Made by a program: the position numbers and the translations under genes
Shown: positions 4,813-21,793 of the stretch, piece after piece
How the letters are laid out: each line of letters begins with the position of its first letter
Numbering within the stretch: position 1 is the first letter of the stretch
The notes under the pieces: generated by a model
What the model saw: the letters and a program-made list of their open reading frames with translations, nothing else
Database searches by the model: none
What the model was told of the DNA's origin: nothing
IMG/VR virus record: IMGVR_UViG_3300009158_000001
Location: 110,108-174,107 of that record
Direction: 5' to 3' (one strand)
Length of the DNA stretch: 64,000 bases
Source: a virus

Positions 4813-5161
4813 ACTAAAGTTTAAACTTTATTAACTTGATACCATAAGGAGCCTTATATATGTATAAGGACAAAACCTCTATATATATTTGGGGAAAAAA
4901 TCTAGGGGAAAAGCTAGGGGGAAAGGGGTATAGGTCTGGGAAAGACGTAGACTTGCCTAAAGAACTCTATATAGGTTTATATATTTATATTTTTATTTTT
5001 ATGGAAAAGAGTGGGTACTTTATATACTGGGACCCTTAAACAACCCATACCCCTATTCGTTTTAGCCCACCCCCTTTAAACGTAAAACTCTGACCGTTAG
5101 GGTGGGACATTGGGTTCCAAAAAGCCCTGCAATTGAGCAGGCACGCGTCTAGGAGTCTGCC

Positions 5162-8100
5162 ATGACTATTGCCCTTATCGTCCTCGCCATCTTCGTCTGC
5201 ATTGTCATCCTTTCCAACACGGTGAGCTATCTCATGACCGCCAACAAGACCGCGCCCATCACCCCCGCCGAGGTTCGTATGAACAACAACAACCACCCCC
5301 TCATCGTCCTGGCCATCGTCACCCTGGTTGTCATTGGTGGCCTTGTCACCTTCGGCATCGGCAAGACTGCTGGCCTGTGGGCTCAGCCCTCCTTCGAGGA
5401 TCTCGTTGACCCCTACGCTGTCGCTGAGTATGAGCAGGTTGCCCTGCGCATTACCAGCTTCCCCCACCCTGGTGTTGGCCAGTACTCGCCTGATGAGGGT
5501 ACCAATTGCACGGGCTGGGCCTGGAAGGGCCACATGTACGGCATTACCCATTGTGATGTCGACACATACATCATTGGCAAGGAGACGGGTGAGACCCCTG
5601 ATCCAGTGGTCCGTATCAACACGGATCACGTTGTCAGTGTCCCTGTATTGGGCAATGACCTCTACACCGTTGGCATGGAATGCAGCCCTGACCTTCGCTG
5701 GTGGGGTGCTACCACTGGTGAGTGGCGTAACCTCGATTGGAGCGACATCGACGTTGAGACATTCAGCCCTAACAACCGCGCTGCTAGCCTCATGCTTGAG
5801 CGCTGGCATGGTAGCGTAAACCGAGCACAGGACGCACTGGCTCAGCAGAACGAGTACAGCGCTAGCCTGTACACCAACACCGCCCTGTTCCAGCAGGGTG
5901 AGTGGGAGATCCTTAGCAAGGGTCAGCGCTACTGCTACGACAGCCAGGATGATGTGGTTGGCCATGGTGGCTGGTTCCGTAGTGGCGATAGCGGTGGTGT
6001 CCTTCTCGCAGGGGATGAGCCCATCGGCGCTGTTAGCTACAGCAACGGGTCTGAGACCCGCAACTGCTTCAGCGCAATTGCGTTGTCGCAGGAGAAGTCC
6101 TACCAGGACTTTGAGTTCCGGGAACTCTCTTCGACCACCATGGACCTGACTGGGAAGTTCAAGACCGCTGCTTCCCACTCGGGTATGCAGGGGCGGATTT
6201 TCCGTAGCCTCAACACCGAAACCACCAACGCCCATCAGGGCAAGGAGAATTTCATGCCTTACCTCATCCTCGCCATCCTCGGCCTCATCCTCGCTGCCGC
6301 CACCACGACCATCAAGGTCAAGGAGTTTCTCATGTCCAACCTTCGCACCATCGTCATTGGTTTCCTGATTGTCCTGGGCCTTGTGGTCCCGATCGTTCTG
6401 GCGTGGAACCACGCCCTCACGGTTTGTCCTGTCACGGACGCATGGTTCAGTGTCAACTTTATGAACGGTGCCCTGGTTAGCATCGTCGTTGAAATGGCTG
6501 CAATTGCGGCTGTTCTCGCCATGGCAACGCTTATCTCTGAGATGAGCTGCCCAAAGTGGATGGTTAAGCCTATCCTCGCCATCACCCCCAACCTTGCCAC
6601 CATCACGGCCAATAAGGCCAAGGAGTCTGTCATGCCTATTCGCCTGTACATTGCAATCATCCTCACAATCGCCATCTTCGTCCCCATGGCGCTTATCGCC
6701 ACCTTCCGAGAGGCCTTCGTGTGTATCTTGGGCCTTGGCCCCCTTGCATTCACGGCTATTGACCTCATTCTGCATGTGGAGTACCACTACCATGTGCGTG
6801 AGCTTTCTATCGTGACCAAGAAGCTCATCGCCCACCAGAAGCTGCACAAGCTGCTCTTTGGCGGTATGGCTCTTCTCGCCATGGTTCTTGGTGGGTGCGG
6901 CGATACCATCCAGCAGGCTCCTGCTGGTATGGGCGAAATCGTCGCCGCTCACAACGGCGAATGCAGCGCCTTCCACTGGCAGGGCCAGATCAGGACGGCG
7001 GCTCACTGCACCTATGCCAGCACCGATTGGCGGGACAACGCAACAGCCGTTCTTCACCAGCAGCAAGGAAAGCATGCTATCCCAGAAGACTTGGCAGATA
7101 TCGGCCAAGAGTGTAGCCCCGACCTGCGTTGGTGGGGTGCCACCACTGGTCGGACTCTGCCTGTGGAGGACGTCAAATTCTACGCTGTAAAGCGTGGGCA
7201 AAACGTCTGGGACCTTGGCGAACAAGTTCCTCCATGGACTCCTGGAGCACAGGCCTGCTTCACCCAGACCCTGCACAACCGCTTCTCCGACGGAGATAGC
7301 GGAGGACCCCTTCTCGCCGGTGATGAGCCGGTGGGCAGCGTCTCCTGGAGCAGCAACCTGCCTTGGGGCATGGCCTGCTTCGGCCGACTGGAAAAACAAC
7401 CAATGTGGGGAAATCTCTCCACGTCTTCCCCGCAAGGGGGTAAGGGCTTCCGCATGAAGTCCATCGAAATGACTGACAGCCTCGCTGTCACTTTGACCCA
7501 GGTCTTCACGGACCTTGCCATTGCAGGAGCAATCCTGGCGCTGGCCTTCCTTCTGGCCCGAGTCCGGGCCAAGTTCCGCACGCACGACGAAACCAACGCC
7601 GGCAATTCTGCTGGCCTCATTGGGGCTAAGAACCCCAGTAAGGGACACATGTCCCCCATTTTGGCCTTCGTGGCCCGCCTGACGAGCGTAATCGTCATCC
7701 TCCTCCTTGGTGTCTGCCTGCTGGCAGCACCCGGCGTGACCCCGCTGGTCTCTTCGAACAACAGCCCGACCATCGAGACGGGCATCGACCCTGAGGCCAT
7801 TGCCAAGATTGTCCAGCGCTTGAAGAAGCGCCTGGCGTACGGCATGCGGATGGCCAAGAAGAAGCGGTGGACCGTGCGTCGCTTGAACCGCTGGCTCGTT
7901 GCAAACGGTTACAAGGCCAAGGCCAAGAAGGCCAAGAAGGCGGTCGCAAAGGCCGTTGTCAAGTTTGACCGTGCGGGTATGACCCGCCGTCAGCGTCGCG
8001 CAAAGGCCCATAAGGCCAAGGTTGCAGCAACGAAGGCAGAAACCAAGGCTCGTGGCGTTAAGCGCCGCGCAGAAGCCAAGGCAACGAACGACGCAATCGC

Positions 8101-11100
8101 CAAGCTGGAGGCTGCGATTGCCTTCCTCGGGCTCATTGCCCGCGTGGCCCGTCACCAACGGCGCATGGAAGTGTCGGCTGCGCGGTCGAAGCGCAAGGTG
8201 GCTCGCAAGGCCACTGCTAAGCCCGCCGCCAAGAAGATCATTGTCAGGGCCGAGGGTGCAGGTCGTCCCACCTTCCACCCCCGCCGCAGCAAAGTCCAGG
8301 GATACAACCCTGCCGCACAAAGCCGACAGGAGATCATCACCTCACGCGAAAAGCGGGAAGAGCGTCGCCTTGCACGCGAGGCTCGGCACCTCACGCTCCT
8401 TAATAGGGCATATGCTGCCCTCCTCAACATGGTCGTTGAGGGAACGGCATTCAAAGCAGGCTGGACCCTTCGAGGTGCATGCATGCTGCTGGCGGACAAC
8501 ATGGCTTGGGTTGCCGCCCAGGCCGAGATCCAAACGTTCGATCAAGATGACGACGTGGCCTGGCAGTATGAGGCAGCCGTCCGCAACATCCCCTTCGAGA
8601 TTAAGCGGGAGGTTGAGAACGCAGAGGTCGACGCAGCATGGGCGCTCATCGAGGCCAACGACAAGAAAGTCCTTGCCGAGATCAAGCAAGCGAACGCTAA
8701 GGCGCGGGCCAAGAGGAAGGCAGAGCGTGAAGAGCGCATTGCCACTCACAGGGCGAAGGTCGACGCAGAGCGGGCCGAACGTGAAGCCGCCAAGGCCGTA
8801 AAGGCCGAAGAGCGCAGGAAGCGGGAAATGGCAAAGGCGGAGCGCCTGGTTGAAGCCCTCAAGGCCCGTGAGGCCAAGAAGGGCAAGACCACCAAGGTGG
8901 ATGTTACTCCTGTGTCTCCCGTGGCTAAGCTGCGGGAAGTCCAGGCAAACAGCCCCGTTCTCGCCGTTGTCGCAGGTCTTGGGCTTGCGACTGGCATGGT
9001 GGCCGTTGCCGTCATTGCCCTTGCTGCAATTGCCTTCTTCGCTATTCGCAAGAATCGTGCCGAAGACTGCAAAGAAGAAACGGTCGACGCAGATTGGGGC
9101 GATCTGCTTGAAGCTCCTGCTGAGCCACAGCCCCAGTCCCTGTTGCTGCGTCTGACAGAGCTCTTGGGCCAAGAGTCTCCTGCGCGGGAGGTTGTTGCAT
9201 ATGAACCTGCTCCTGCACCAGTTACTGTACCTGCCGAGCCAGAGCCGCAATCTCTTCTTGGGCGTCTTATTGAGCTTCTGCCTGAGGCTGAGGCGCGTGC
9301 TACTGAGCCTGCCACCTGCGCTTGCGGAATACCGCAGGAAGAAGGCTACGTCTGCGATACCTGCGTACTCAATGAGTATGCTGCTGGTATGGCAAATGCC
9401 CTCGAAAATGCGGTCGAAGAGTTTCCCTTCACCGATCCTGGTGACTGGGATGGCGGGGCAATCGATGACGTGTATGCGGCTCAGCTCATGGCGGCTGACC
9501 GTGAAGCCGCGCAACGCGATGCGGCAGACTTGGAAGAGCACCTGCAGGTTCTTGCGGCAGAAGCTGCTCTTGCAGACCTCGACCAGGAAGCAGAACAGGA
9601 CATTGATCCGCTAGATCTTCTAGTGGAGAAGGCCAAGGAGGAAGAGATGGAAGAGGAAAAGACCCCTGAGCAGGTCTGGGCAGAAATCTGCAATGAGCTG
9701 ACGGTATCCCCTAGGAACTACTCGGCTAATGCTGCAATGAACATCTTGATTGAGATGTATCAGCGCAAGATTGACCTGTTCCGTTTCCGCCATTTCGGCA
9801 CTACTCGTACGTTCACCCGCAAAGACAAAGACGGGGATAGGCGTACCAGTAAGACAAAGACTCTGCGCAAGGACGTTATTGTCCGGTTTGCCAGCATCCT
9901 GCGTCAGGACAAGGAGATGGCAACGTGGTTTGCGGAAGCAAGTCACGATCCCTCTTGGGAGCAGTTCTGGGTTGGCATCGAGTCCCTTATGAAGGACAAG
10001 AAGCAGGCTTGGACTGCCCAGGATTGGCGTATCCTTCGAGCCAGGTACGAAGCGGCTGTCTTGGTCGTTAACGACCTCTGCATCGAGTTCCTCGGTCAGT
10101 CGAAGAGCAAGCCAAAGTTCATGGCAAGTGAAGTCTCTTGTCTTGTAACCAAAGACACCTTCCGCTACCGTGCAGTTGGTGCGCAGGAAGCGATGGAAGC
10201 CTGCAAGCGCATTAACGCAAAGCACAAAGGTGGCTTCTGTGTGGCTCGTGGTGTCTACCAAGAGCAAATGCTTAGCGGCTCTCACCTGCCCTGGGTTGTT
10301 GATAAGGCTGACGGGGAAGGCAACTGGCTGGAGTTTGGCTTTGTTCTCACCACCAGCGCTGGTGTTGCAGACTGGGGCTTTGGCCGTGAAAACCGCAACA
10401 ATAGCAGTGTTGAGCTGAAGACTGCCACAGAAATGCTTGGTGGAATTGTCCAGCTTGATCAGTACAAGCCAGAACGTGCGTACATCGAGATGTTCCACAA
10501 GAACTGGACCTTGATGAAGAAGCCCAGCCTTAACGACTGGAAGACTTTCATTAAGACAGCCTTTGCCAATGGCAACATGTTATTCATTAACCCAACGACA
10601 ATGGATACCAGGCATGTCGCCAAGAACGGCACCAGTTACAGTAAGTCTGTAACTGACAATGGCACAACAGCCAGCACGGTCCATACTTTCTTCAACGATG
10701 GTAGCGTGACCACGGTAATGACGCGCAAGACTCTTGATGCAAATTCGAAAGGCTTTGCTCACAAGTTCAGCAGTGCGCGGACGACTATCAGGAAGTTCTT
10801 CTTGAAACACTCTGGTATTCGTGATCTCAAGGTTCTTCCTTGGGAAGTTGTCGAAAGCCGAGATGAGCTGGCAACAAAGTTTGGCAATGAGTCGTATGAC
10901 CAATACCAGGCATGCCGTAAAGCAATCTCTGCTGATCGCAATCATCGGCTAGACGTTGTAGTTCTTAGCCGCGTGAACAATGCACGGTTTGAGGCTTGGG
11001 CTACTGAGTATGTGCAGAATAAGCAATCATCGGTTGTTTATCACATCAAGACTCGGCAGCCTTTGACGCTCAGCCAGCTCAACAAGCAGAATAAGGCCCT

Positions 11101-14100
11101 TGCAAAGCTGCAGGGTAATTACTTCTTGGCTCAAACTGAGTTGGAAACTAGCCGCGCTGGTATTGCAGCCATTAGGCATACGATTGAGACGAGTGCTTAT
11201 ACGTCTCAAGAACTGTCTTCTGATTTGATTGAGGCCTTCAAAGAAGGTTACCAATGGATGAAGACTCCTGGTGGCTATCAGTTGGTTAGCGCAAGAAAAG
11301 CTGCAGCAAACCCAGAGAAGATTCTCAAGGGCGAAGCTCTTGCTGCTGTGCTGGATGCGTGGATCAAGACTGCCATTGACGTTCAGGCAGACTCTCTTCG
11401 CGCAGAGGGTGCGAAGATTGTGCGCAGGTACGAAGAAGCACTTCAGCTTCTGCTTCCTGGGTACAGCTGCAAGGTCAATGGTGAGGATTGTCTCATGGCT
11501 GCATACAATAAAGCAGAACATGCGAAAAAGACAGACCCCAGCAATCCTGAGATTGCCTTGCTTCTTGCAGCGTACTATGCGGAGTACGAGAAAGAGCAAG
11601 CGGAGTACGAGAATGAGCAAGCGAAAATCCAAGCGCGTTACGAGAAAACCCATAAGGAATGTCAGGAGTATGAGCAGCGCGTTAAGGAGCAGGAAGGATG
11701 GGATGAAATCCCGTTCTGTAAAGCAGGTGCCGTTCTTTCGGCATTGGCTCTTGCAGCTGGGCTTCCTGCCTTCGTGGTAGTGTTGCCGCTTGCACTGACG
11801 GCACTGGCTGCTTTCATGAAGATGGAAAACTCTGACGTTGAAGGTGAGGAGATCCTCGCTGACAATGCAGAGTTCTGCCTGTACAGTACACCAATTGTCC
11901 GTCACACAACAGGCAAGTGGACTGCAGTCAAAGACAACAACACTGGGGAATCCGCCCCAGTCGAAGCTGGCGAAAGCCAGAAGGAGAAGCCCATGAGCTT
12001 CCTTGACAAGATGAACCAGACCATCCGAAATGTCTGGAACGAGCTCACCGGCCGTGAGAGAATTGGTACTGACGTGAAGACCAAGGCACCTGCCACGTAC
12101 GGCTCTATCCTTGCTGCCAGCAAGGTTGAGCACACGGCACTTACCCGTATCTGCGGTGGTAAGATCCGTGAGATGCAAGTCACCGAACTCAGCAGTGAAG
12201 AGCTGCGTGAGATCAAAGACTTCATCCGCCGTGATGGTGACACCTGGATCATTGTCCGCGACTCTCAGAAGTTCCACTTCCCGAACTGGGCAATGGAGAA
12301 GCTGGTGTCTGAGATTGTGATTGCAGGTCACGCTGTCGACAAGAAGGTCAGCCAGCAGGAAGTGAATAAGTATTTCGGCAGCTTGCTTTGGGCTCCTGCT
12401 GAGATTGTTTCCTTCCAGGCTAGCGAAGCCAAGGTCATGAGTGATGGGCTTGCCGCCATGTACGACGGTACCAACCTGATGAGCGATGAGCTTGCATCGA
12501 CTATCGACTGGGTTGGCTATGCAATTCGTCGACTGCTTACGGTACTCGGCTTGTTCAAGGGTATGTTCATTATCCTTCCTGCTGGGTACTTCCCGTCTGG
12601 GGTCAAGCTATTCGGCAGTGAGGTGAAGAAGCACCTTCGTCTGCGTCGGGATAGCGGTCGTGCACTTGCACTGCAGCCTCAGGCTAACGGTCACAGTGAT
12701 GTGGCTAGGACTCTAGGCATGCAGCTTTGGTCCATGCTGTTGGGCCCCTGGATTGCTAGTGTTGGTTTTGCCAATCTAGCGAAGGGAGCGTACGGCTATG
12801 CAATGTCGAACCTGAACAAGGCTAATGAGCGTCTTCTTGCTCCTGCAGAGGAAGAAGAAGAAGGCCGCGATGCCTTGATGGCTGAGGCTAGCCGCCTGCA
12901 CGGGTTCAATCCAATTGCTGTATTCAGGTCTTTTGCGACCAGCATGGCAAACGGGCTCACGAAGTCCTTCAATCCCAACAAGGTGAACATTGCACCTGTT
13001 GACGAGAAGGGCAGAAGCCTTGTGCCAAACGGCTATCCGATGATGCTGCCTTGGCTTGCGCTGGCAGAGCTGTGGCTCAAGGTCACGGGCAAAGTGCCAG
13101 AAGAGCTTGCTAAGAAGGTTGAAGATACCGAAAAGCTTCGTCTGCGGCTCTTTAAGCTTGCGAACGGCGCAATTCCAGTGCTTGTGCACAACATGCACCG
13201 CCTTGATGCGGCTAAGGTTGCAGGCATTCGTCGCATGGCTATTGCTGCTATTGCGACTCGCATCCCGACTGGCAAGACCAGCGGTATCGAGGTTATGCTC
13301 TTCGACGCAGAAGAGTATGGGGCAGATCTACTGCCTGAGATCGTTGGCCGTAAGAAGAACGACATTGAGTTCTGGCTCTTCCCTTGCGAGGAGACCACGG
13401 CCTTCAAGGTTGCTTCTGAGGGCGGCGACGACGACGACCTGTACGAGTTCCTCCTGGGAATTCTGCACAAGCTGGCTCGCCTTGGCCTTGAGTGGCGGGC
13501 AAAGATCCTCGATGTGAGTGCCGATACGCAAAAGGCCATGGACGAAATCAAAGTTCGCTTTGCTCGTCAGGTGGCAGCATTCAAAGAAGACCGTAAGCTT
13601 CTTGCAAAGCTGATGGAGATGCCTTATGCAAAAGTCTTCACGGCAAATGGCAAGGTCAGGGCAGGCTGGCCGTCTCTCTTGGGTGTTACCATGGCACCAG
13701 GTGGATGGCAGATCCGTCACACGGAAGCTGTTGAAGATATCATCGTGATGACCGAGGAGTCCCGTGAAGATATCGCCACCCAGGCTCGCCTCTTTGCTGA
13801 GGTAATGACAGCAAACAACGACAGCCCGTTCACCAGCGCCATTGGCACTGTTGCGCAGAGCCACAAGTTTGCCACTGGCATCTTGACTGGAAACGTTGTG
13901 CTGACGAACAGTATCGGTGCTCTGGATAAGATCTGGGCACTCTTTGTTCTTGCTACCATTCTGCTGTCGGATATGGTAGACGCTTGCAACAAGGGCAAGA
14001 AGTACGCAGAGGCTGGTGCTGCACTCATGTACCTTAACTGGGCATGGGGCTGGCTGTGCTATCGTATTGCTAGCAATCCAGATGCTAAGGTTATCTGCCC

Positions 14101-16453
14101 TGCGCAGTATCTAGTATCTGTGCCTCCTGCTGCCAAAGAGCTGTTCAACGCACGTCATGCTAATAAGATGACTGTTGATGGCAAAGTTGTTCAGCCGGGC
14201 AAGCTTCTCAACAATCTCTATGAGAACCATAGAGAGCTTGGCGAGACGGTCGAGGCTATGATCCGCGAAGAGCACAACCGTGCTGAGTTCTCGGCTACGG
14301 TAACTGCGATGCTTCAGACTGTTAGCGTTCCTGTGCCTGGGGCTGCTTCTGCTCAGGGTATGGGCTCGGAAGTCTGGGCTGAAGTCTGGACTGCAAGCGG
14401 CCGCAAGAAGATCTACCTGGATGGTCTCAAGCAGAAGTCTGCTATGAGGTTCGAAGACATTCGGGCAGAGCAGCGTTACATGGCAGAACTCAACAATGCA
14501 ACCGTCTACGCAGCACATGCTGAGTTTGACCGTATTGTCATGGGTCGCCTTGTGAAAGCTGATCCTAACGCTACTAGTGAGGAGATTGCAGCTATGTTCA
14601 AGCTTTGCAAGCTTGGCATGGTCTACTCGTATGCTTTCAAGACTGTTGGCTACGAAGAGAACTGCGTCAAGATCCTTATGGATGAAGAGGGAGAGTTCGG
14701 CGCTTCTGGCGGCGTTCCTACCTACATCATCCCTGTCAGCGGCAACTGCACCTTTATCGGCAACTTTGCAGGTAGCAGCGAGATCCTCCTTGAGTGGATG
14801 ATGAATCCTGCTACACTCGCACTTGTTGCTGAGATCAAAGCCAAGGCTGGCGACTTCAAGTACGTCGTTCTCTCCATGAAGGGTGAAGCCTTTGGAGAGA
14901 TGATTGACGGCGGTCGTGACCTCAGGTACAGCGAGGCTGACTTTGATGGCAAATCCATCACGGAGATCCTCTGTATGCCTGGCGTTGCTCTTGCTGGCAA
15001 TCAGCGTGAAGAAAGCCACGTTGATCAGAGCACCTGGCTTGCAAGTGTAGCAGACACGGTCACGCAACGTCGCAACGACATTCTTCGCAAGCTGAAGGCG
15101 GAGAACAAAGCAGCAGAAGCATTGCTTCGCGGCAAGACTTTCGGAGAGCTTCTTCAGGAGTTCAACGTAACGGTCGTCGCAGAGTCCGTCACTGGCACTG
15201 CCAAGGTCGAAAAGATCGAGGCGTTCAAGTGGATGGACAAGAAGCATGCGGGTCGTACGTACCCAAACACCTTTGTCATTGTTCGCTTCGGGAATGAAGC
15301 AGATCCTGTGACTGAGGAGATGGAAGAGGATGATATTACCATCTTCCTTGCTGACGAAGTGATTGAGGCTGCTCCTGACACCAAGGAGAACATTACGATC
15401 GAGGCCTCTGCTCCTGTGGTTGAAAAGACTGCAGAAGCAAAAAAAGACAGCATAAGCGATAAGCTCAACCGCATCTTCGGCAAGAAGGAGGCTGTTAAGC
15501 CCCCTGCTCCTATCGAAGTCGTGCCTGCTGCTGTTGTTGCGGCTGCTACTGGACAAGAGGAGCTCAAGATCCTGAGCATTTCTGAGCCTGCCTTTGCGAA
15601 AGAAGGATGGTCCCAGACCAGCGAAGGAAAGCTTGTGCGCCGCACTTTCAGCAAGACCAAAGTCAAGGAAGTCTTTGCTGCTGGCTGGAACTTCTGCTTC
15701 TGCGAGGGCGATGGAGACAAGTGGGTCATTGCAGACACCCGCTTTGGTTTTGTCATTGGCCGCGGACAGACTCAGGTCATAGCGTTGCAAAGGGCAATTG
15801 CAAACACCCAGGCTGCTAAGGTTGGACGCAACCTTCTTGACGAAGTCCAGTTCTCGAACTGGCTCTTTGACCGTGCAACTCAGGCTCAGCGTCCGCTTGT
15901 TGACCTGATTGCAGAGCACAACAAGAAGGAAGAGCCCGTGGCCGAGGCAACTCCTGCTACTCCTGTTGTTGTCGCAGAGACTGCTGGTACTAAGCCTACT
16001 AGCCGTTGCGTTGGTAACTTCGCATTGGCTGGCCTTCAGCACTCTAGTAACGTCAATGTTGCTGAGCGTGAGCTTGTTGAGGGCGTAAAGATTACTCTCA
16101 TCCGCAATGTGGCTCACCCCAAGGATGCAAATGCCGTTGAGGTCCATGTGAATGGTTACCGCTTCGGGTATGTTCCTAAGGAAGCCGCTGCAAGGCTGGC
16201 TCCTCGGATGGACATCGGCGTGAAGGCGTGGGCCATTGTCACGGGATGGGAAAACGGGTACGCCCGCTTCGATCTGTTCCTTGGCAAGACGCCCACTACC
16301 TTGGAGACGTTCAACTACCAGCGTGACGAAATCGAGCGTGCATGCGAGGGGCTTGCCTGGCTGGAGTCGTACGACGCGACCGATGAACAGAAGGCTCCGG
16401 CTAATGCCCTCCTTGCGCACTTTGCTGCCCTTTGTGGTAGCCTTAAGCTCTGA
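5162..16453 (+). CDS. 3763-aa polyprotein-like ORF: membrane segments, two trypsin-like serine proteases, basic/coiled-coil and acidic regions, two-barrel RNA polymerase, HIRAN domain
   Basis: Open frame with SD AGGAG at 5151; domain motifs are listed in the sub-features; several in-frame internal SD+ATG sites. Confidence 0.85.
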   Translation: MTIALIVLAIFVCIVILSNTVSYLMTANKTAPITPAEVRMNNNNHPLIVLAIVTLVVIGGLVTFGIGKTAGLWAQPSFEDLVDPYAVAEYEQVALRITSFPHPGVGQYSPDEGTNCTGWAWKGHMYGITHCDVDTYIIGKETGETPDPVVRINTDHVVSVPVLGNDLYTVGMECSPDLRWWGATTGEWRNLDWSDIDVETFSPNNRAASLMLERWHGSVNRAQDALAQQNEYSASLYTNTALFQQGEWEILSKGQRYCYDSQDDVVGHGGWFRSGDSGGVLLAGDEPIGAVSYSNGSETRNCFSAIALSQEKSYQDFEFRELSSTTMDLTGKFKTAASHSGMQGRIFRSLNTETTNAHQGKENFMPYLILAILGLILAAATTTIKVKEFLMSNLRTIVIGFLIVLGLVVPIVLAWNHALTVCPVTDAWFSVNFMNGALVSIVVEMAAIAAVLAMATLISEMSCPKWMVKPILAITPNLATITANKAKESVMPIRLYIAIILTIAIFVPMALIATFREAFVCILGLGPLAFTAIDLILHVEYHYHVRELSIVTKKLIAHQKLHKLLFGGMALLAMVLGGCGDTIQQAPAGMGEIVAAHNGECSAFHWQGQIRTAAHCTYASTDWRDNATAVLHQQQGKHAIPEDLADIGQECSPDLRWWGATTGRTLPVEDVKFYAVKRGQNVWDLGEQVPPWTPGAQACFTQTLHNRFSDGDSGGPLLAGDEPVGSVSWSSNLPWGMACFGRLEKQPMWGNLSTSSPQGGKGFRMKSIEMTDSLAVTLTQVFTDLAIAGAILALAFLLARVRAKFRTHDETNAGNSAGLIGAKNPSKGHMSPILAFVARLTSVIVILLLGVCLLAAPGVTPLVSSNNSPTIETGIDPEAIAKIVQRLKKRLAYGMRMAKKKRWTVRRLNRWLVANGYKAKAKKAKKAVAKAVVKFDRAGMTRRQRRAKAHKAKVAATKAETKARGVKRRAEAKATNDAIAKLEAAIAFLGLIARVARHQRRMEVSAARSKRKVARKATAKPAAKKIIVRAEGAGRPTFHPRRSKVQGYNPAAQSRQEIITSREKREERRLAREARHLTLLNRAYAALLNMVVEGTAFKAGWTLRGACMLLADNMAWVAAQAEIQTFDQDDDVAWQYEAAVRNIPFEIKREVENAEVDAAWALIEANDKKVLAEIKQANAKARAKRKAEREERIATHRAKVDAERAEREAAKAVKAEERRKREMAKAERLVEALKAREAKKGKTTKVDVTPVSPVAKLREVQANSPVLAVVAGLGLATGMVAVAVIALAAIAFFAIRKNRAEDCKEETVDADWGDLLEAPAEPQPQSLLLRLTELLGQESPAREVVAYEPAPAPVTVPAEPEPQSLLGRLIELLPEAEARATEPATCACGIPQEEGYVCDTCVLNEYAAGMANALENAVEEFPFTDPGDWDGGAIDDVYAAQLMAADREAAQRDAADLEEHLQVLAAEAALADLDQEAEQDIDPLDLLVEKAKEEEMEEEKTPEQVWAEICNELTVSPRNYSANAAMNILIEMYQRKIDLFRFRHFGTTRTFTRKDKDGDRRTSKTKTLRKDVIVRFASILRQDKEMATWFAEASHDPSWEQFWVGIESLMKDKKQAWTAQDWRILRARYEAAVLVVNDLCIEFLGQSKSKPKFMASEVSCLVTKDTFRYRAVGAQEAMEACKRINAKHKGGFCVARGVYQEQMLSGSHLPWVVDKADGEGNWLEFGFVLTTSAGVADWGFGRENRNNSSVELKTATEMLGGIVQLDQYKPERAYIEMFHKNWTLMKKPSLNDWKTFIKTAFANGNMLFINPTTMDTRHVAKNGTSYSKSVTDNGTTASTVHTFFNDGSVTTVMTRKTLDANSKGFAHKFSSARTTIRKFFLKHSGIRDLKVLPWEVVESRDELATKFGNESYDQYQACRKAISADRNHRLDVVVLSRVNNARFEAWATEYVQNKQSSVVYHIKTRQPLTLSQLNKQNKALAKLQGNYFLAQTELETSRAGIAAIRHTIETSAYTSQELSSDLIEAFKEGYQWMKTPGGYQLVSARKAAANPEKILKGEALAAVLDAWIKTAIDVQADSLRAEGAKIVRRYEEALQLLLPGYSCKVNGEDCLMAAYNKAEHAKKTDPSNPEIALLLAAYYAEYEKEQAEYENEQAKIQARYEKTHKECQEYEQRVKEQEGWDEIPFCKAGAVLSALALAAGLPAFVVVLPLALTALAAFMKMENSDVEGEEILADNAEFCLYSTPIVRHTTGKWTAVKDNNTGESAPVEAGESQKEKPMSFLDKMNQTIRNVWNELTGRERIGTDVKTKAPATYGSILAASKVEHTALTRICGGKIREMQVTELSSEELREIKDFIRRDGDTWIIVRDSQKFHFPNWAMEKLVSEIVIAGHAVDKKVSQQEVNKYFGSLLWAPAEIVSFQASEAKVMSDGLAAMYDGTNLMSDELASTIDWVGYAIRRLLTVLGLFKGMFIILPAGYFPSGVKLFGSEVKKHLRLRRDSGRALALQPQANGHSDVARTLGMQLWSMLLGPWIASVGFANLAKGAYGYAMSNLNKANERLLAPAEEEEEGRDALMAEASRLHGFNPIAVFRSFATSMANGLTKSFNPNKVNIAPVDEKGRSLVPNGYPMMLPWLALAELWLKVTGKVPEELAKKVEDTEKLRLRLFKLANGAIPVLVHNMHRLDAAKVAGIRRMAIAAIATRIPTGKTSGIEVMLFDAEEYGADLLPEIVGRKKNDIEFWLFPCEETTAFKVASEGGDDDDLYEFLLGILHKLARLGLEWRAKILDVSADTQKAMDEIKVRFARQVAAFKEDRKLLAKLMEMPYAKVFTANGKVRAGWPSLLGVTMAPGGWQIRHTEAVEDIIVMTEESREDIATQARLFAEVMTANNDSPFTSAIGTVAQSHKFATGILTGNVVLTNSIGALDKIWALFVLATILLSDMVDACNKGKKYAEAGAALMYLNWAWGWLCYRIASNPDAKVICPAQYLVSVPPAAKELFNARHANKMTVDGKVVQPGKLLNNLYENHRELGETVEAMIREEHNRAEFSATVTAMLQTVSVPVPGAASAQGMGSEVWAEVWTASGRKKIYLDGLKQKSAMRFEDIRAEQRYMAELNNATVYAAHAEFDRIVMGRLVKADPNATSEEIAAMFKLCKLGMVYSYAFKTVGYEENCVKILMDEEGEFGASGGVPTYIIPVSGNCTFIGNFAGSSEILLEWMMNPATLALVAEIKAKAGDFKYVVLSMKGEAFGEMIDGGRDLRYSEADFDGKSITEILCMPGVALAGNQREESHVDQSTWLASVADTVTQRRNDILRKLKAENKAAEALLRGKTFGELLQEFNVTVVAESVTGTAKVEKIEAFKWMDKKHAGRTYPNTFVIVRFGNEADPVTEEMEEDDITIFLADEVIEAAPDTKENITIEASAPVVEKTAEAKKDSISDKLNRIFGKKEAVKPPAPIEVVPAAVVAAATGQEELKILSISEPAFAKEGWSQTSEGKLVRRTFSKTKVKEVFAAGWNFCFCEGDGDKWVIADTRFGFVIGRGQTQVIALQRAIANTQAAKVGRNLLDEVQFSNWLFDRATQAQRPLVDLIAEHNKKEEPVAEATPATPVVVAETAGTKPTSRCVGNFALAGLQHSSNVNVAERELVEGVKITLIRNVAHPKDANAVEVHVNGYRFGYVPKEAAARLAPRMDIGVKAWAIVTGWENGYARFDLFLGKTPTTLETFNYQRDEIERACEGLAWLESYDATDEQKAPANALLAHFAALCGSLKL
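5500..6080 (+). other. Trypsin-like serine protease domain 1 of the giant ORF
   Basis: CTG..GITHC (His, 5546-5554), GNDLY (Asp), GDSGG (5984-5998), then LLAGDEPIGAVS; preceded by a signal-anchor. Confidence 0.7.
6940..7390 (+). other. Trypsin-like serine protease domain 2 of the giant ORF, preceded by a lipobox-like LGGC
   Basis: CSA..TAAHC (6995-7009), EDLA (Asp), GDSGGPL (7292-7312), GSVSW; LGGC at 6887-6898 follows a basic and hydrophobic stretch. Confidence 0.8.
11993..15300 (+). other. Single-subunit double-psi-barrel RNA polymerase domain (YonO / cellular-RdRP-like); C-terminal boundary approximate
   Basis: Motifs in family order: YDGTNLMS (12461), FKGMF (12554), TRIP (13256), GGDDDD (13421-13438), AIG (13838), SDMVDACNKG (13967-13996). 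Has its own SD AAGGAG + ATG at 11993. Confidence 0.75.
16019..16285 (+). other. HIRAN domain at the C-terminus of the giant ORF
   Basis: FALAGLQH...ITLIRNVAHPKDANAVEV..GYRFGYVPKEAAARLAPRMD matches the HIRAN consensus. Confidence 0.85.
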
Positions 16454-16475
16454 GGTTACTATGAAGGAGATCCTC

Positions 16476-16733
16476 ATGAAGTACATGGGTGGTGCTAAGT
16501 ATCCTGGTCCTTGCCGCAATTGCAGCCGCTACTGTGGTTGTGATACACTGCGGCTCTTCCGAGATGACCGATATAAGGCAGCGAAGTGGGTCACAATCTG
16601 CACAGATTGCTGTGAAGAATGGGATGCCCGCTTCAACAAGCCCAAGGCCATTGTGGCTCCTCAACCTGCTCCTGTAAAGGAAGTGAAGGTTGTGGAAGTC
16701 GCTAAGCCAAAGCAACTTTCGTTGTTCGGCTAG
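16476..16733 (+). CDS. Small Cys-rich (zinc-finger-like) protein
   Basis: SD AAGGAG before ATG 16476 (alternative in-frame ATG at 16461); CRNC..CTDC. Confidence 0.6.
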   Translation: MKYMGGAKYPGPCRNCSRYCGCDTLRLFRDDRYKAAKWVTICTDCCEEWDARFNKPKAIVAPQPAPVKEVKVVEVAKPKQLSLFG

Positions 16734-16777
16734 AGAACTGACAGTTTGAACTAAAGCCCTATTCTACAACCCTTTTC

Positions 16778-16806
16778 AAAAGAGCTCACTTTGTGAGCTT
16801 TTTTTT
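16778..16806 (+). terminator. Intrinsic terminator
   Basis: AGCTCAC-TTT-GTGAGCT followed by a T-tract. Confidence 0.8.
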
Positions 16807-16897
16807 ACTACTTACTTACAGAGGCCAAACGACTCCGCTACTCCGCTCCCCCTCGAAAGCCTGTGTGTATTTTGTAATTTCTGCACCCCCTTGGAGA

Positions 16898-16912
16898 GGC
16901 TCCTGCGTCGCC
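16898..16912 (+). promoter_or_regulatory. Hairpin motif copy 1 (putative phage-RNAP promoter)
   Basis: GGC-TCCTGCGTC-GCC. Confidence 0.65.
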
Positions 16913-16970
16913 CAGAGCATTGTAGGCTTCGCTCCCTGGCAACAAAGCTAGACCAACGAGAGGTCTGGTG

Positions 16971-16987
16971 GGCCTCCTGCGTCGGCC
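16971..16987 (+). promoter_or_regulatory. Hairpin motif copy 2
   Basis: GGCC-TCCTGCGTC-GGCC. Confidence 0.65.
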
Positions 16988-16989
16988 AG

Positions 16990-17152
16990 ATATAGTGAGC
17001 GTTCACGCTTGCTATACTGGCGGATCCGTCCCAGTAGATGCGAGAGATAACGGATAGGTACCTCCCAAACGTCTACCTTGTCGGGTGTGGGAAGGCCGAA
17101 AACGCTGACAAGGAAAGAACCTCTGGCCTCACGGCTGGGGGTTCTTTTTTTT
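16990..17152 (+). ncRNA. Putative structured small RNA ending in an intrinsic terminator
   Basis: No credible ORF. Stems TATAGTGAGCG/CGCTTGCTATA and CCTTGTCGG/CTGACAAGG; terminator at 17115-17152. Confidence 0.45.
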
Positions 17153-17201
17153 CCACTCCGCTGAATAACCAGATAACTTGTGGCAACCAGGGGTCTTACG
17201 A

Positions 17202-17216
17202 GGCTCCTTCGTCGCC
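17202..17216 (+). promoter_or_regulatory. Hairpin motif copy 3
   Basis: GGC-TCCTTCGTC-GCC. Confidence 0.65.
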
Positions 17217-17219
17217 CAA

Positions 17220-17457
17220 AGCATCGGATGGTGGCTGCCGCTACCCGTATCAGAGAAGGCCTGTCGGTCTCTGGTATGTATCAGACAGGGGCGGTTGCCA
17301 GTCCGCCTAACAGAAAAACTGGCCGTCATCCCCTTTAGGATGGCATGTTTACGTCCCCTCTTGGACGGGTTCCTGGTAGTGGTAATCCTACTTACTGCGT
17401 ACCAGGATAGAGAGGTAAAGCCCCAGCACAGTAGGATGTGTTGGGGTTTTATTTTTG
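17220..17457 (+). ncRNA. Putative structured small RNA ending in an intrinsic terminator
   Basis: No SD-led ORF. Stems CCTGTC/GACAGG, GCCAGT/ACTGGC, GCCGTC/GATGGC, TCCTGGTA/TACCAGGA; terminator at 17417-17457. Confidence 0.45.
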
Positions 17458-17508
17458 TTACTCCGCTATATAAGTAGATTACTAGTAACTATATAGTGGT
17501 TTGTTGGC

Positions 17509-17523
17509 GGCTCCTACGTCGCC
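17509..17523 (+). promoter_or_regulatory. Hairpin motif copy 4
   Basis: GGC-TCCTACGTC-GCC. Confidence 0.65.
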
Positions 17524-17526
17524 CAA

Positions 17527-17674
17527 AGCACTGGGCGTTGACGCTCTGCCATCTCCGTTGGTAGAGACTAGCTTTAAAACACGGGGAGTCCCAGGTCGGC
17601 CTTACGGGCTTGGATAAGACTATTGGCAGAAGGACAGATTCCCACTACTAGGCCGGTAGTGGGTTTCTTTTTTT
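17527..17674 (+). ncRNA. Putative small RNA ending in an intrinsic terminator
   Basis: No SD-led ORF; terminator CCCACTAC/GTAGTGGG + T-tract at 17641-17674. Confidence 0.4.
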
Positions 17675-17692
17675 GGCCTCCTTCGTCGGCCA
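17674..17692 (+). promoter_or_regulatory. Hairpin motif copy 5
   Basis: TGGCC-TCCTTCGTC-GGCCA. Confidence 0.65.
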
Positions 17693-17736
17693 GAGATTAT
17701 GAGGCACTTTCGCCTCTCGGTCCTTAGGAGGACACC

Positions 17737-17949
17737 ATGAAGGCAGGTAAGTATCACTCGTACGACTGGCGAACCGAGCGGGATGCGGATGCTGATAGGA
17801 GCGTCTTCGTCCAGGCCTGGAAAGCCAAGTTCCCTGGGGTCGTGCCGCAGTTCGCCATCATCCTGGATGACGGCAGTTGCCACTGGTGGAACGAATGGCC
17901 AGACGGGCGGACTCGGCGGCTTCCGCCTAGCACATTCAAGATCGGCTAA
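17737..17949 (+). CDS. Hypothetical protein (70 aa)
   Basis: SD TAGGAGG; lies between motif copy 5 and a terminator. Confidence 0.75.
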   Translation: MKAGKYHSYDWRTERDADADRSVFVQAWKAKFPGVVPQFAIILDDGSCHWWNEWPDGRTRRLPPSTFKIG

Positions 17950-17955
17950 AGATAG

Positions 17956-17987
17956 ACCCTCGGCTTCGGTTGGGGGTTTTTCTTTTC
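17956..17987 (+). terminator. Intrinsic terminator with C-UUCG-G loop
   Basis: ACCCTCGGC-TTCG-GTTGGGGGT + T-tract. Confidence 0.8.
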
Positions 17988-18126
17988 TCACTCCGCTACA
18001 CAGTGGGGTGGCTCCAGCTCCCGGACTCTTCGGCGGTCAGCAGGTAGGAACCCAATAGCAAAAAGAGGCGAAAAAATATAGACTCCGCTATAGGCCGGAA
18101 AGGTTATATCAACTAGTAGTGTTGAG

Positions 18127-18141
18127 AGCTCCTGCGTCGCC
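18127..18141 (+). promoter_or_regulatory. Hairpin motif copy 6
   Basis: AGC-TCCTGCGTC-GCC. Confidence 0.6.
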
Positions 18142-18144
18142 TAA

Positions 18145-18408
18145 GTGTTGTGAGGTAATCGCGGACCTCTTAGTCATGTTCCAACCCTGGGGAGCATGAT
18201 GAGCCTAGTTAGACAAGGCAAAACGAACAAAGGGAGTAGGTGTCCATCCGCCGAAGTTAAGAGCACCTGTACGCGGGACTCGGGATGGAACTCATGTGCT
18301 GGATCTCCTAAGGAGGCACATGTTTAAACAGAAGAGGGGATGACCTGCGCATGTCACAAAACTGCCCCAATTTTAACCCTCTGGCTTCGGTCGGAGGGTT
18401 TTTCTTTT
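18145..18408 (+). ncRNA. Putative structured RNA ending in an intrinsic terminator
   Basis: Stems GAGGT/ACCTC, CATGTTCC/GGAGCATG, TCCATCC/GGATGGA; UUCG terminator at 18376-18408; only a 6-codon SD-led micro-ORF. Confidence 0.4.
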
Positions 18409-18426
18409 GGCCTCCTGCGTCGTCCA
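18408..18426 (+). promoter_or_regulatory. Hairpin motif copy 7
   Basis: TGGCC-TCCTGCGTC-GTCCA. Confidence 0.6.
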
Positions 18427-18466
18427 GAGAAAGTGGGCAACTTTCGCCCCAAACGGAGAAGAGAAC

Positions 18467-18646
18467 ATGCAGTACGATCTTACAGTGACACAAAGCCCCA
18501 GCGGACTCGTATACTTTCGGGTATACAGCAAAGAGACCGGTGATTGCAAGTGCATCCTGAGCATCGACCCCAAGGACGGGTCTCTCGAGGCGGCAACGGG
18601 TGACGAGGAGTTCACGGGCTACTCCATCGTTGGAGAACTCGTCTAA
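18467..18646 (+). CDS. Hypothetical protein (59 aa)
   Basis: SD GGAG before ATG 18467 (MQYDLTV...). Confidence 0.65.
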   Translation: MQYDLTVTQSPSGLVYFRVYSKETGDCKCILSIDPKDGSLEAATGDEEFTGYSIVGELV

Positions 18647-18650
18647 GAGA

Positions 18651-18680
18651 GACCCTGGCTTCGGCTGGGGTTTCTTTTTT
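18651..18680 (+). terminator. Intrinsic terminator with C-UUCG-G loop
   Basis: GACCCTGGC-TTCG-GCTGGGGTT + T-tract. Confidence 0.8.
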
Positions 18681-18682
18681 CA

Positions 18683-18697
18683 GGCTCCTTCGTCGCC
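18683..18697 (+). promoter_or_regulatory. Hairpin motif copy 8
   Basis: GGC-TCCTTCGTC-GCC. Confidence 0.65.
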
Positions 18698-18740
18698 CAA
18701 GGAAAATGGGTAATGTCACCCTTCCTTTACGGAGTCGAAG

Positions 18741-19145
18741 ATGAACAGTGTCAATTTTGTCGGGTTTCTTACTTCCACCCATAAGGAAGTGGGCGATGTC
18801 CTCTGTGTCGTCGTGAAGAGTGTCGATGGGAACAGTGCTCCCACTGTGCGTTTCACGGGCAAGCAGCGTGAGGCTCTCAAGAAGTGGGGCACCCCCGGAC
18901 GTCTTGTGAGCATCAGTGGCAGCTTCGGAACGGAGGTGAATGGCAAGGTGAAGGACTCCTTCATCGCCTGCGCCTACAGCCGTTTCTTGGACAAGCAGGA
19001 GACTGTGGCTAAGGCTGCTGCTCCTGTTGCGGCACCTGTCGTGGCTGCTGCACCTGTCAAGGCTGCAAAGGCTCCCAAGGCTGCAAAGGCCACAAAGGCT
19101 GCTCCTCCCGCGAATGTCGATCCTGACGACGTTCCGTGGGCGTAA
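18741..19145 (+). CDS. Divergent SSB-like OB-fold protein
   Basis: MNSVNFVGFLT start, GRLVSISGSF strand, Ala/Lys/Pro linker and acidic tail DPDDVPWA. Confidence 0.6.
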   Translation: MNSVNFVGFLTSTHKEVGDVLCVVVKSVDGNSAPTVRFTGKQREALKKWGTPGRLVSISGSFGTEVNGKVKDSFIACAYSRFLDKQETVAKAAAPVAAPVVAAAPVKAAKAPKAAKATKAAPPANVDPDDVPWA

Positions 19146-19147
19146 CT

Positions 19148-19180
19148 AACCCCTGGCTTCGGCTGGGGGTTCTTTTTCTT
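19148..19180 (+). terminator. Intrinsic terminator with C-UUCG-G loop
   Basis: AACCCCTGGC-TTCG-GCTGGGGGTT + T-tract. Confidence 0.8.
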
Positions 19181-19271
19181 GACTCCGCTATGGGCCGGTG
19201 CAGTTCCAGCTCCGAGACGTCTGGCGGCTGTCAGGGAGAAGACCATCATCAAAAAGAGGCGAAAATAAATG

Positions 19272-19286
19272 GGCTCCTGCGTCGCC
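19272..19286 (+). promoter_or_regulatory. Hairpin motif copy 9
   Basis: GGC-TCCTGCGTC-GCC. Confidence 0.65.
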
Positions 19287-19327
19287 TAGGTACAGTGAGG
19301 GTTTGTCCTCGTTGCCAGGAGTCTGTC

Positions 19328-19468
19328 ATGTTTGAGAAAGTGTCGCTTGAAGACTGTTACGGTATCGCTGTGGGTGGTGAGGACGAGATGATCGCCCGCA
19401 TCGACGAGGCCAATGAGTACGTGTACAACCACGATGAGTTGGATGACTTCGACTACAGCGAAGGTTGA
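19328..19468 (+). CDS. Small acidic protein (46 aa)
   Basis: AGGAGTCTGTC-ATG start; terminator at 19470-19498 follows. Confidence 0.65.
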   Translation: MFEKVSLEDCYGIAVGGEDEMIARIDEANEYVYNHDELDDFDYSEG

Positions 19469-19509
19469 AGAGATGGCCCGAAAGGGTCTTTTCTTTTCTA
19501 AGACAAAGG

Positions 19510-19526
19510 GGCCTCCTGCGTCGGCC
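19510..19526 (+). promoter_or_regulatory. Hairpin motif copy 10
   Basis: GGCC-TCCTGCGTC-GGCC. Confidence 0.65.
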
Positions 19527-19529
19527 ATA

Positions 19530-19970
19530 TGTCTTGAGTCTCGGCTCTACAGTTTACGGCGTCGAGTAGGTTACATTGCGAATAATAGGGGATGTAAACC
19601 CTATTGCTCGTACTGCAAGACGTCATCCTTTGAGAGTTTACTAGTAAAATCATAAGTGCGCCTGCCGCTTATGGGAACCTAGTGAGAGTCAGGGTTGCAA
19701 ACCTGGCTATAACAAATAGGCTGACTATTATGGGACCCTGCCCTGGTAGTTATATGAACATGGGGTGGTCTGCTGCAGCGGGCCTTTGATCAGTCGGGTG
19801 TTCGCTATACAGATACTGAACGGGTGACCACGCCCACAGTTGAGTGCAAGGCTCAGCAATTAGGATTCCTACGAGAAGGGTTCAATCCCCTTTTTCATCG
19901 GCCACATGCCATGTAGGGTTCAGTATCAGCGCAATGTATGGCTATGGGTTCGAGTCCCATATGATTGAAT
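19530..19970 (+). ncRNA. Putative ~440-nt multi-stem RNA or structured leader with two T-loop hairpins
   Basis: No SD-led ORF. Nested stems GTCTTG/CAAGAC, AATAGGG/CCCTATT, CATAAG/CTTATG, AGTCAG/CTGACT; T-loop-like GGTTCAATCC (19879) and GGTTCGAGTCC (19947). Confidence 0.45.
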
Positions 19971-19998
19971 TACTTTACACCGTCCTAAGGAGGACAAC

Positions 19999-20577: not shown

Positions 20578-20732
20578 TAGTCCAATAGGTCCACAGCCTG
20601 CAACCTGCCCGTTGGTAGGCTAACCTATCAGATGTCATGTCTGGTAGCCACAAAGGCTGCATCACTTCCTTATGGTAATAGATAGGTTCGAATCCTATCA
20701 GGAAGACTTTACCCCCTTATATAGGTGACAAG

Positions 20733-20936: not shown

Positions 20937-20954
20937 CGTCCTTAGGAGGACACC

Positions 20955-21137: not shown

Positions 21138-21139
21138 TC

Positions 21140-21598: not shown

Positions 21599-21609
21599 CA
21601 GGAAAAACA

Positions 21610-21783: not shown

Positions 21784-21793
21784 GAGGTGTACT

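Follow-up and report, generated by a model that had tools for sequence, protein, structure and literature searches.

The window, the 64,000-nucleotide stretch of viral DNA analysed here (IMG/VR record IMGVR_UViG_3300009158_000001, positions 110,108 to 174,107), contains a stop-free open reading frame (ORF) of 3,763 codons (positions 5162–16453, + strand) that we consider reasonably likely to be an operon written in one reading frame, its modules chained through joints that keep complete translation-initiation regions. Cistrons that are separate in relatives would here have been joined in frame without stop codons, and one message probably gives both the giant fusion and separate proteins. On sequence comparison, at least three joints keep a ribosome-binding site, a start codon and hairpins under selection; the RNA structure itself looks selected. 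The first-pass annotation had described these segments as fossil intergenic regions translated inside the ORF. That they are intergenic-type start regions read in frame is borne out by a stop codon at one joint in a relative, by separate ORFs in three others and by stand-alone homologues of the polymerase module. The word fossil is wrong, because the structures and the pairs of Shine–Dalgarno (SD) motif and ATG are maintained start regions, translated in frame, and are not decaying.

Modules of the giant ORF

The ORF runs from a transmembrane (TM) module with a first S1-type protease through small TM proteins, a lipobox with a second S1-type protease, TM modules and a long K/R/A-rich region to a two-barrel RNA polymerase and then a HIRAN domain at the C-terminal end (16019–16240, + strand; Pfam PF08797, E = 3.5e-8). 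Its GC content is 0.55 against about 0.39 in the flanks, a contrast that the relatives share. Protease 2 (6884–7396, + strand) carries TAAHC and GDSGGP motifs behind a lipobox-like segment; TAAHC and GDSGG motifs are present for the S1 assignment of the peptidases, the match to PF00089 being weak and below the cut-off. The AlphaFold model of residues 558–857 has a pLDDT of 40.

The module that follows site 4 (11993–14611, + strand; AlphaFold pLDDT 86) starts at M2278 and is, by its modelled fold, a two-barrel RNA polymerase of the QDE-1/YonO type, with predicted activity. Foldseek aligns it with QDE-1 over about 900 columns (probability 1.00, E = 6.5e-7 to 1.2e-5), with further matches to RDR2, P32 gp64, P74 gp62, P23-45 gp96 and phi14:2 gp66. 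A G-x-D-x-D-D motif is invariant in 17 polymerase sequences, the Gly of the canonical DxDGD-type metal-binding loop being replaced. Distant homologues are stand-alone proteins of 1,081–1,971 residues, collinear with M2278 from their residue 1 onward.

Joints as gene boundaries

In the predicted gene layouts of relatives (designated by L numbers) the joints are gene boundaries. L002–L008, L011 and L012 differ through shuffling, loss or gain of modules, which are reordered among relatives and occupy separate ORFs in L005, L006 and L008. In L005 and L009 a true ORF begins with the lipobox-protease module, which in L003, L004 and L007 follows an internal SD–ATG. SD and ATG are retained at homologous joints in four to eight relatives, and at the joint before protease 2 the usable SD has been lost in the window. 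Four relatives, L002, L003 and L004 among them, keep the frame open through every joint, over 3,729–4,061 codons, which argues that the fusion protein is also selected. L009 and L005 are 93% identical over 950 nt, with TAG in the former against GAG in the latter five codons before the ATG of site 2 (7454 in the window). This TAG falls inside the second hairpin of the site, and the next gene in L009 is called at the equivalent of the site-2 ATG; the stop implies, indirectly, that the downstream start works.

It is conceivable, and in our view highly improbable, that the joint sequences serve as recombination linkers, favouring the shuffling of modules, and are conserved through exchange, not through RNA folding. 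Module order does vary, and breakpoints coincide with joints (at site 1, for example, the 91% identity of the window to L004 gives way to none), and cassette types recur at non-homologous joints; shared ancestry does not, however, predict the compensated pairs, the one-strand G·U pairs or the GNRA and UUCG retention described below. Shuffling at the joints is compatible with the operon explanation as a side effect.

Two types of start cassette

An SD motif at canonical spacing before an in-frame ATG lies inside the longer ORF at 6254, 6332, 6632, 7454, 7649 and 11993. The ORF contains 10 AAGGAG hexamers, five of which have an in-frame ATG exactly 6 nt on, the chance of ATG at a given codon being about 0.026; strong SD–ATG sites in the ORF as a whole are not above synonymous shuffles in number (8 against 5.8 ± 2.0). 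Read from the alignments, the SD–ATG pairs are non-random and conserved and the hairpins are kept by compensatory changes.

Two of the joints belong to a hairpin-bearing type (class II), in which a pair of short stable hairpins precedes the SD; the second of them, often with a GNRA or UUCG loop, would abut the SD, and a third hairpin would hold the 3′ part of the SD together with the AUG. Site 2 (7405–7462, + strand) consists of h1 (7405–7422), h2 (7427–7440, with a GNRA loop), an SD-like motif (7441–7446) and h3 (7444–7462), which encloses ATG 7454; site 3 (7595–7655, + strand) has h1 (7598–7615), h2 (7621–7637), an SD-like motif (7639–7645) and h3 (7642–7655) around ATG 7649. The SD-like motif ahead of both ATGs is of the UAAGGG type. 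Site 4 (11942–11995, + strand) would be a variant of this plan, with h1 (11942–11961), h2 (11967–11980, with a GAAA loop), AAGGAG (11981–11986), a 6-nt spacer and ATG 11993. The inverted repeats listed in the first-pass annotation are all present at the positions it gives, its two GNRA loops lie at 7432–7435 and 11972–11975, and at 6254, 7454, 7649 and 11993 an SD-like motif with its in-frame ATG does follow immediately on the hairpins.

The site-1 joint (6215–6256, + strand) is a second cassette type (class I), with a C/A-rich, weakly structured to unstructured leader, AAGGAG (6242–6247), a 6-nt spacer and ATG 6254. The same AAGGAG, six bases and ATG would define class I at 6320–6334 (+ strand; ATG 6332), which corresponds to the real ORF start of L002 and L003, and at 6620–6634 (+ strand; ATG 6632), the start of a small TM module, where SD and ATG are conserved in L002, L003, L005a, L006a and L008a. 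Cassettes of the site-1 type are found at other joints in L003, L004, L006, L007, L008 and L011. The GCCC-ATCA-GGGC hairpin at 6230–6241, singled out earlier as an element of the same kind as the others, has 4 bp and −5.9 kcal/mol and is at chance level (its folding segment is at the 80th percentile of the ORF, z = +0.2); it is missing from those other copies of the cassette. Hairpins are absent from three joints.

For comparison, the true leader of the ORF (5126–5164, + strand) holds a 5-bp hairpin (5126–5141), the SD AGGAG (5151–5155) and ATG 5162, and is common to the L002 and L003 ORFs despite their different first module. The real 5′ leader of the SSB gene in L008 has a plan like that of the hairpin-bearing joints (two hairpins, SD, ATG). 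A paralogous joint in L012 repeats the plan of three hairpins, its stems being unrelated and its loop UUCG, and tetraloops elsewhere remain GNRA.

A pair of stable tetraloop hairpins side by side, directly 5′ of an SD, is reminiscent of the 5′ stabilisers of bacterial and phage mRNAs. The hairpin pairs could accordingly be processing or stability elements, endonuclease cuts releasing hairpin-protected sub-messages and so setting module levels, a role that can coexist with internal initiation. The like plan of the L008 leader speaks for this; the stems are, however, too short for RNase III, the hairpins have no match in Rfam and class I joints lack hairpins altogether, and we judge such a role very unlikely.

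Folding and covariation

Folding of the 45 nt just 5′ of each of ATG 7454, 7649 and 11993 gives about −21 kcal/mol, which places them at the 0.3 percentile when all codon-phased segments of the ORF are ranked (mean −10.6, sd 3.75 kcal/mol). Against synonymous-codon shuffles z is −2.4 (7454), −3.3 (7649) and −2.8 (11993), where background segments have a mean of −0.56 and sd of 1.15, with 8.6% at ≤ −2. The expectation that regions ahead of the internal ATGs would be more structured than such shuffles therefore held at these three and failed at site 1.

These values bear on the possibility that the hairpins are by-products of composition (linkers of Gly GGN and Pro CCN codons at 55–58% GC) and the SD–ATG pairs decaying relics without function. 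Most stems are indeed pairs of G-runs and C-runs from Gly, Pro, Trp and Ser codons. The ORF has 39 clusters of segments at ≤ −19 kcal/mol, equally stable and mostly away from any start; the stretch 7300–8300 is GC-rich, conserved and stably folding throughout, in all relatives. Chance often places a hairpin of ≥ 5 bp around an ATG (32 of 97 ATGs), and GNRA loops cap 5.5% of the tetraloop hairpins in the ORF, so that two of six at the sites gives p of only about 0.04. The chance-level hairpin of site 1, the SD count and the protease-2 joint without a usable SD in the window point the same way. The shuffles nevertheless preserve the GG and CC of Gly and Pro codons and still leave z at −2.4 to −3.3. 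Composition also does not account for double changes at three sites that keep the pair while replacing amino acids, for tetraloops that stay GNRA or UUCG, for the frozen codons around ATG 7454 or for the stop in L009 with its implied downstream start. We regard this explanation as quite unlikely.

The double changes are clearest at site 3. Its three adjacent hairpins have 17 of 17 pairs paired in all six sequences, against 27–52% in slid controls; five of the 17 pairs have changed on both sides, mostly with a change of amino acid, and the covariation score is reached by none of 500 shuffles. The covariation all comes from one split between two clades, plus L007, among few relatives; L007 has a third variant of h1 with one more compensated pair. 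In the comparison of the window with L006, 39% of the changed pairs in background hairpins stay paired and 9% are compensated, whereas site 3 keeps six of six and compensates five of six (p about 0.003 and about 4e-5); two further hairpins away from joints also carry a compensated pair against L006. At site 2, h2 shows a double change of the C-G to U-A type through amino-acid replacements with its GNRA loop retained, the formal test being weak (one covarying pair; 56–58 of 500 shuffles score as high). At site 4, h1 has changed from G-C to A-U in L002 through amino-acid replacements, one double change among three sequences. Every relative retains the h3 hairpins with SD and AUG inside (7444–7462 and 7642–7655); at site 3 an A-U pair has become U-A. 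G·U pairs are also conserved, which places the structure on the sense strand.

Around ATG 7454 the codons are identical in six sequences, while the fully conserved catalytic motif of the protease varies at nearly every synonymous site. The earlier suggestion that the segments carry RNA-level and protein-level information at once is thus upheld by the compensatory non-synonymous double changes, the frozen codons around ATG 7454 and the open frame, and does not extend to the hairpin of site 1.

Ribosomes can be slowed by stable hairpins, and a similar effect has been proposed for internal SD-like motifs. The protein might then be made from ATG 5162 only, motifs and hairpins being programmed pauses for module folding or membrane insertion. 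The joint elements do sit at module borders, following a protease or TM segment, and the frame is open in four relatives. A pause, however, could do without an ATG, whereas every joint keeps one in frame at canonical spacing; those ATGs are real gene starts in relatives, modules open with signal or lipobox segments of N-terminal type, and in L009 the frame is broken just ahead of the ATG. Pausing as the sole function is unlikely.

Discussion

Under the operon explanation, ribosomes would initiate at the internal ATGs and make individual products in addition to the complete fusion. The lipoprotein-type protease and the RNA polymerase, for instance, would each also exist as a free protein, as would small membrane proteins. 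The hairpins on the upstream side may insulate or stabilise the start region, and the hairpin enclosing the AUG would tie internal initiation to unfolding by upstream ribosomes, as in translational coupling. Initiation within an actively translated frame is usually inefficient. For the phage group as a whole we put forward a wider proposal, tentatively and as one possibility: the same stop-free message may yield a polyprotein of about 3,700–4,000 residues, which unites protease, membrane modules, RNA polymerase and HIRAN and might serve packaging and ejection, as well as individual proteins through at least five conserved, hairpin-regulated internal start cassettes, and stops at the joints may come and go without loss of viability.

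Use of the internal starts would mean that at least five real proteins of this phage group escape gene callers and proteome predictions, among them the lipoprotein-type protease and the single-subunit RNA polymerase in free form. Operons and polyproteins would then interconvert through the gain or loss of a single stop at a joint with a working start region. The joints also form a natural set of compact hairpin–SD–AUG cassettes whose regulatory logic is directly testable.

The coat and replicase genes of MS2 are translationally coupled through a hairpin that occludes the start site in a polycistronic mRNA. As there, the downstream SD and AUG here lie in a hairpin, which ribosomes arriving from upstream would have to open; classical coupling has a stop of the upstream cistron near the start site, whereas here the upstream ribosome reads through the joint. 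In-frame nested genes expressed from internal starts include lambda C/Nu3 and T7 gene 4A/4B. Further in-frame internal starts are those of two-polypeptide phage endolysins (PMC9430671) and of Cas11b (PMC11899642). Like these, the joints combine an SD and a start in frame inside a longer ORF, conserved among relatives, and a long and a short product with a common C-terminus are expected from one message. Nested genes have one internal start per gene, whereas at least five or six are predicted here in a single frame of 3,763 codons. Unlike them, each start borders a module that is a separate gene elsewhere, some starts have conserved leader hairpins, and the stop toggles at a joint between close relatives.

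The polyvalent proteins of phages and conjugative elements (Iyer, Burroughs, Anand, de Souza and Aravind, 2017; PMC5512222) are likewise giant multi-domain phage proteins of variable architecture with peptidase domains of their own. The concept has them delivered with the DNA and their parts released by proteolysis, typically through a zincin-like peptidase; the peptidases encoded here belong to the S1 type and carry a membrane or lipobox anchor, and Pfam finds no zincin-like (MPTase) domain in the giant ORF. A term search of that paper gives no mention of start codons. It counts N4-like virion RNA polymerases among the polyvalent proteins, unlike which the polymerase here is of the two-barrel type. 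Giant virion-packaged RNA polymerases are known from N4 (vRNAP) and from the crAss-like phage phi14:2 (gp66; bioRxiv 10.1101/2020.03.07.982082; PDB 6vr4), and no sequence similarity to either is detectable. The module here matches the QDE-1/YonO/gp66 fold class. As in those proteins, the polymerase is embedded in a phage protein of several thousand residues; unlike them, the protein here is made up over its N-terminal two thirds of protease and membrane modules that have start sites of their own.

A giant reading frame in a GC-rich island

The virus record is 174,107 bp long with direct terminal repeats, and the window is its last 64 kb. The giant ORF occupies 5162-16453 on the plus strand (3,763 codons) and forms a GC-rich island [GC 0.55 versus ~0.39 in the flanks]; this contrast, with a GC-high gene and AT-rich flanks, is common to all relatives for which flanks are available. 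GC is 0.50-0.60 throughout the giant gene and the early region that follows it (window positions 5000-25000, and likewise in the relatives), the remaining phage DNA being at ~0.38-0.41. In the giant ORF, Pfam identifies a HIRAN domain at the C-terminus, a trypsin match below threshold and nothing else. Two S1-type protease modules are evident from their TAAHC-like and GDSGG motifs, and hydrophobic segments are numerous.

The giant relatives come from ENA and Logan assemblies, and all relatives were reached via the protein collection, their DNA then being fetched. A tblastn search of deposited phages gave no match, and scans of viral and metagenome contigs with peptide and DNA patterns gave no relatives. 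The frame is open over 3,729, 4,061 and 3,967 codons in the related sequences L002, L003 and L004, and L005, L006 and L008 have it as two ORFs. In L004 the frame is open from 6416 to 18313; the gene caller shortened the gene (start at 10001) and placed two shadow genes on the minus strand across the 5' third of the frame (6299-9982).

Internal joints as gene boundaries in relatives

Pairwise maps of the relatives show that the gene is built of modules and that these are shuffled. The order in the window is protease 1, small TM proteins, protease 2. L004 is 91% identical to the window in the first module and divergence begins exactly at site 1, the joint before the in-frame ATG 6254. The TM module that follows ATG 6332 in the window opens the ORFs of L002 and L003, and in L005, L006 and L008 it is part of a different ORF, located upstream. 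The lipobox-protease 2 module comes first in a true ORF in L005 and L009, and follows an internal SD-ATG in L003, L004 and L007. At the corresponding joint of the window (6840-6870) a G-rich motif abuts the ATG and a usable SD is absent; since the relatives have a strong SD, this joint, alone among the joints, may really be decaying.

The module downstream of ATG 11993 (site 4) is predicted to adopt the QDE-1/YonO-type two-barrel RNA polymerase fold (pLDDT 86). Its distant homologs, identified by an exhaustive profile-free search, are stand-alone proteins of 1,081-1,971 aa; right from their N-terminal residues they are collinear with the segment that begins at M2278, which is encoded by ATG 11993. 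Two other ATGs with strong SD scores were rejected as joints: ATG 9647 is not conserved in L002, and ATG 12803 lies inside the polymerase module.

At site 2, the joint before ATG 7454, two close relatives differ by a stop codon. L009, a 950-nt contig recorded in three samples and 93% identical to L005, carries a TAG in place of the L005 GAG five codons 5' of the ATG that corresponds to 7454, and the next gene is called at that ATG. No suppressor tRNA is found among the tRNA genes of the window, so read-through of the TAG by recoding is unsupported there; the six tRNA genes (Arg-TCT, Met, Lys, Pro, Thr, Tyr) lie at 23984-24059 and 40733-43954. The L009 stop is the most direct evidence on the nature of the joints.

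Start signals and codon conservation

The ORF contains ten AAGGAG hexamers, five of which have an in-frame ATG exactly six bases on; SD-ATG pairing is not random. This hexamer-spacing test took the place of a count of strong SD-ATG sites, whose excess over synonymous shuffles (8 versus 5.8 ± 2.0) is not significant. Six sequences agree at seven of the nine codons around ATG 7454, in contrast to the invariant protease motif in which nearly every codon varies synonymously. A window scan of synonymous sites places sites 2 and 3 (the latter before ATG 7649) among the top windows and flags neighbouring stretches too. The promoter and terminator scan returned nothing at the joints. The joints before ATG 6254, 6332 and 6632 have no hairpin; that at 6254 represents a second type of cassette, one whose leader is rich in C and A, and six relatives have this type at other joints. 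A near-identical start cassette with the SD within a small inverted repeat is present at three early-region genes (17717-17739, 19979-20001 and 20935-20957).

Stability of the leader hairpins

The inverted repeats described in the first-pass annotation were all located where it had placed them, and both GNRA loops are real. Folding energies were calculated for 45-nt windows ending 8 nt before the candidate start, with all codon-phased windows of the ORF as reference. The values before ATG 7454, 7649 and 11993 are ~-21 kcal/mol, the 0.3 percentile of this reference. Relative to synonymous shuffles that preserve both protein sequence and codon pool, the z-scores are -2.4, -3.3 and -2.8 respectively (background windows: mean -0.56, sd 1.15, 8.6% at -2 or lower). 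The proposal that stable hairpins precede the internal ATGs thus holds for sites 2, 3 and 4 but fails for site 1, where the hairpin is weak (-5.9 kcal/mol) and the window is less structured than the ORF average. Stability alone is not decisive, because 39 equally stable window clusters occur elsewhere in the ORF, most of them far from any start; hairpins around ATGs are common by chance. Conservation of fold stability in four relatives does not single out the joints, as conservation and high GC extend over all of 7300-8300. The AlphaFold model of aa 558-857 has a pLDDT of 40, and the Rfam search gave no family match.

Covariation

Site 3 consists of three adjacent hairpins, the third of which encloses the AUG and the 3' part of the SD. 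The alignment used is a plain nucleotide alignment of six sequences, a protein-guided codon alignment having misplaced the first hairpin in L006. All 17 pairs are paired in all six sequences (slid controls: 27-52% paired). Both sides have changed at five pairs and the covariation score is reached by none of 500 shuffles, the signal coming mostly from one clade split; six to eight sequences are informative per site. All other window hairpins between 6900 and 7700 served as internal control against L006: of their changed pairs, 39% can still form and 9% are double-compensated, whereas site 3 retains six of six changed pairs, five of them double-compensated. The site-3 covariance model finds a third variant of the first hairpin in L007, with one further compensated pair. 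Conserved G·U pairs assign the hairpin structures to the sense strand. The same model weakly matches a true 5' leader, that of the SSB gene, in L008 (19500-19594) and L006 (13118-13169) (E ~0.005-0.02, a rough value); in both, this leader has two tetraloop hairpins, then the SD, then the ATG.

In the GNRA hairpin of site 2, one C-G pair has become U-A in six of eight sequences via Pro/Ser and Gly/Glu replacements, and the loop remains GNRA. The first hairpin of site 2 has two length variants, both of which fold; the formal covariation test at this site is weak. In L002 the first hairpin of site 4 has both sides of one pair changed, from G-C to A-U. A paralogous joint in the related sequence L012 follows the same plan of three hairpins, its stems being unrelated and its loop UUCG. 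Two explanations of the hairpins, as an artefact of composition or as purely pausing signals, are disfavoured by the compensatory changes and by conserved ATGs that serve as real starts in relatives.

Compensated pairs are also seen in a few hairpins outside the joints. Three double changes preserve the pairing of a 14-nt palindromic hairpin within the ORF (10063-10076), not at a joint, in L002, L003 and L004. Downstream of the giant ORF, directly after the terminator at ~16786-16812, two hairpin elements (16896-16912 and 16971-16988) have a common fixed 9-nt loop and short G/C stems.

Interpretation and comparison with known systems

Judged from these comparisons, the joints are probably start regions of cistrons fused in frame. 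The earlier view of them as fossil intergenic regions was not borne out; the start regions are maintained. Processing sites and recombination linkers are rival explanations of the joints. The single frame is itself under selection, as four relatives that differ in module order have every joint in phase and free of stops. A selected frame with maintained start regions makes dual use the natural reading: the whole chain would be translated from ATG 5162, and module proteins would also be translated separately from the internal ATGs. The N-terminal-type signal and lipobox segments directly after internal ATGs fit such dual use, as does the L009 stop. Of the three hairpins, the two upstream may serve to insulate the start region or to stabilise it, and the third, which encloses the AUG, may link initiation to ribosomes passing through from upstream.

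Genes with one in-frame internal start are well known, as in lambda C/Nu3 and T7 4A/4B. Further examples are endolysins (PMC9430671) and Cas11b (PMC11899642). Giant polyvalent proteins of phages, which carry the peptidases that process them, have also been described (PMC5512222). We have not found described the combination of internal start cassettes in such number, covarying leader hairpins at some of them and a stop that toggles at a joint between close relatives. Where the known cases have a single internal start, the giant ORF has at least five or six start cassettes in a chain along one stop-free frame, each located at a module border.
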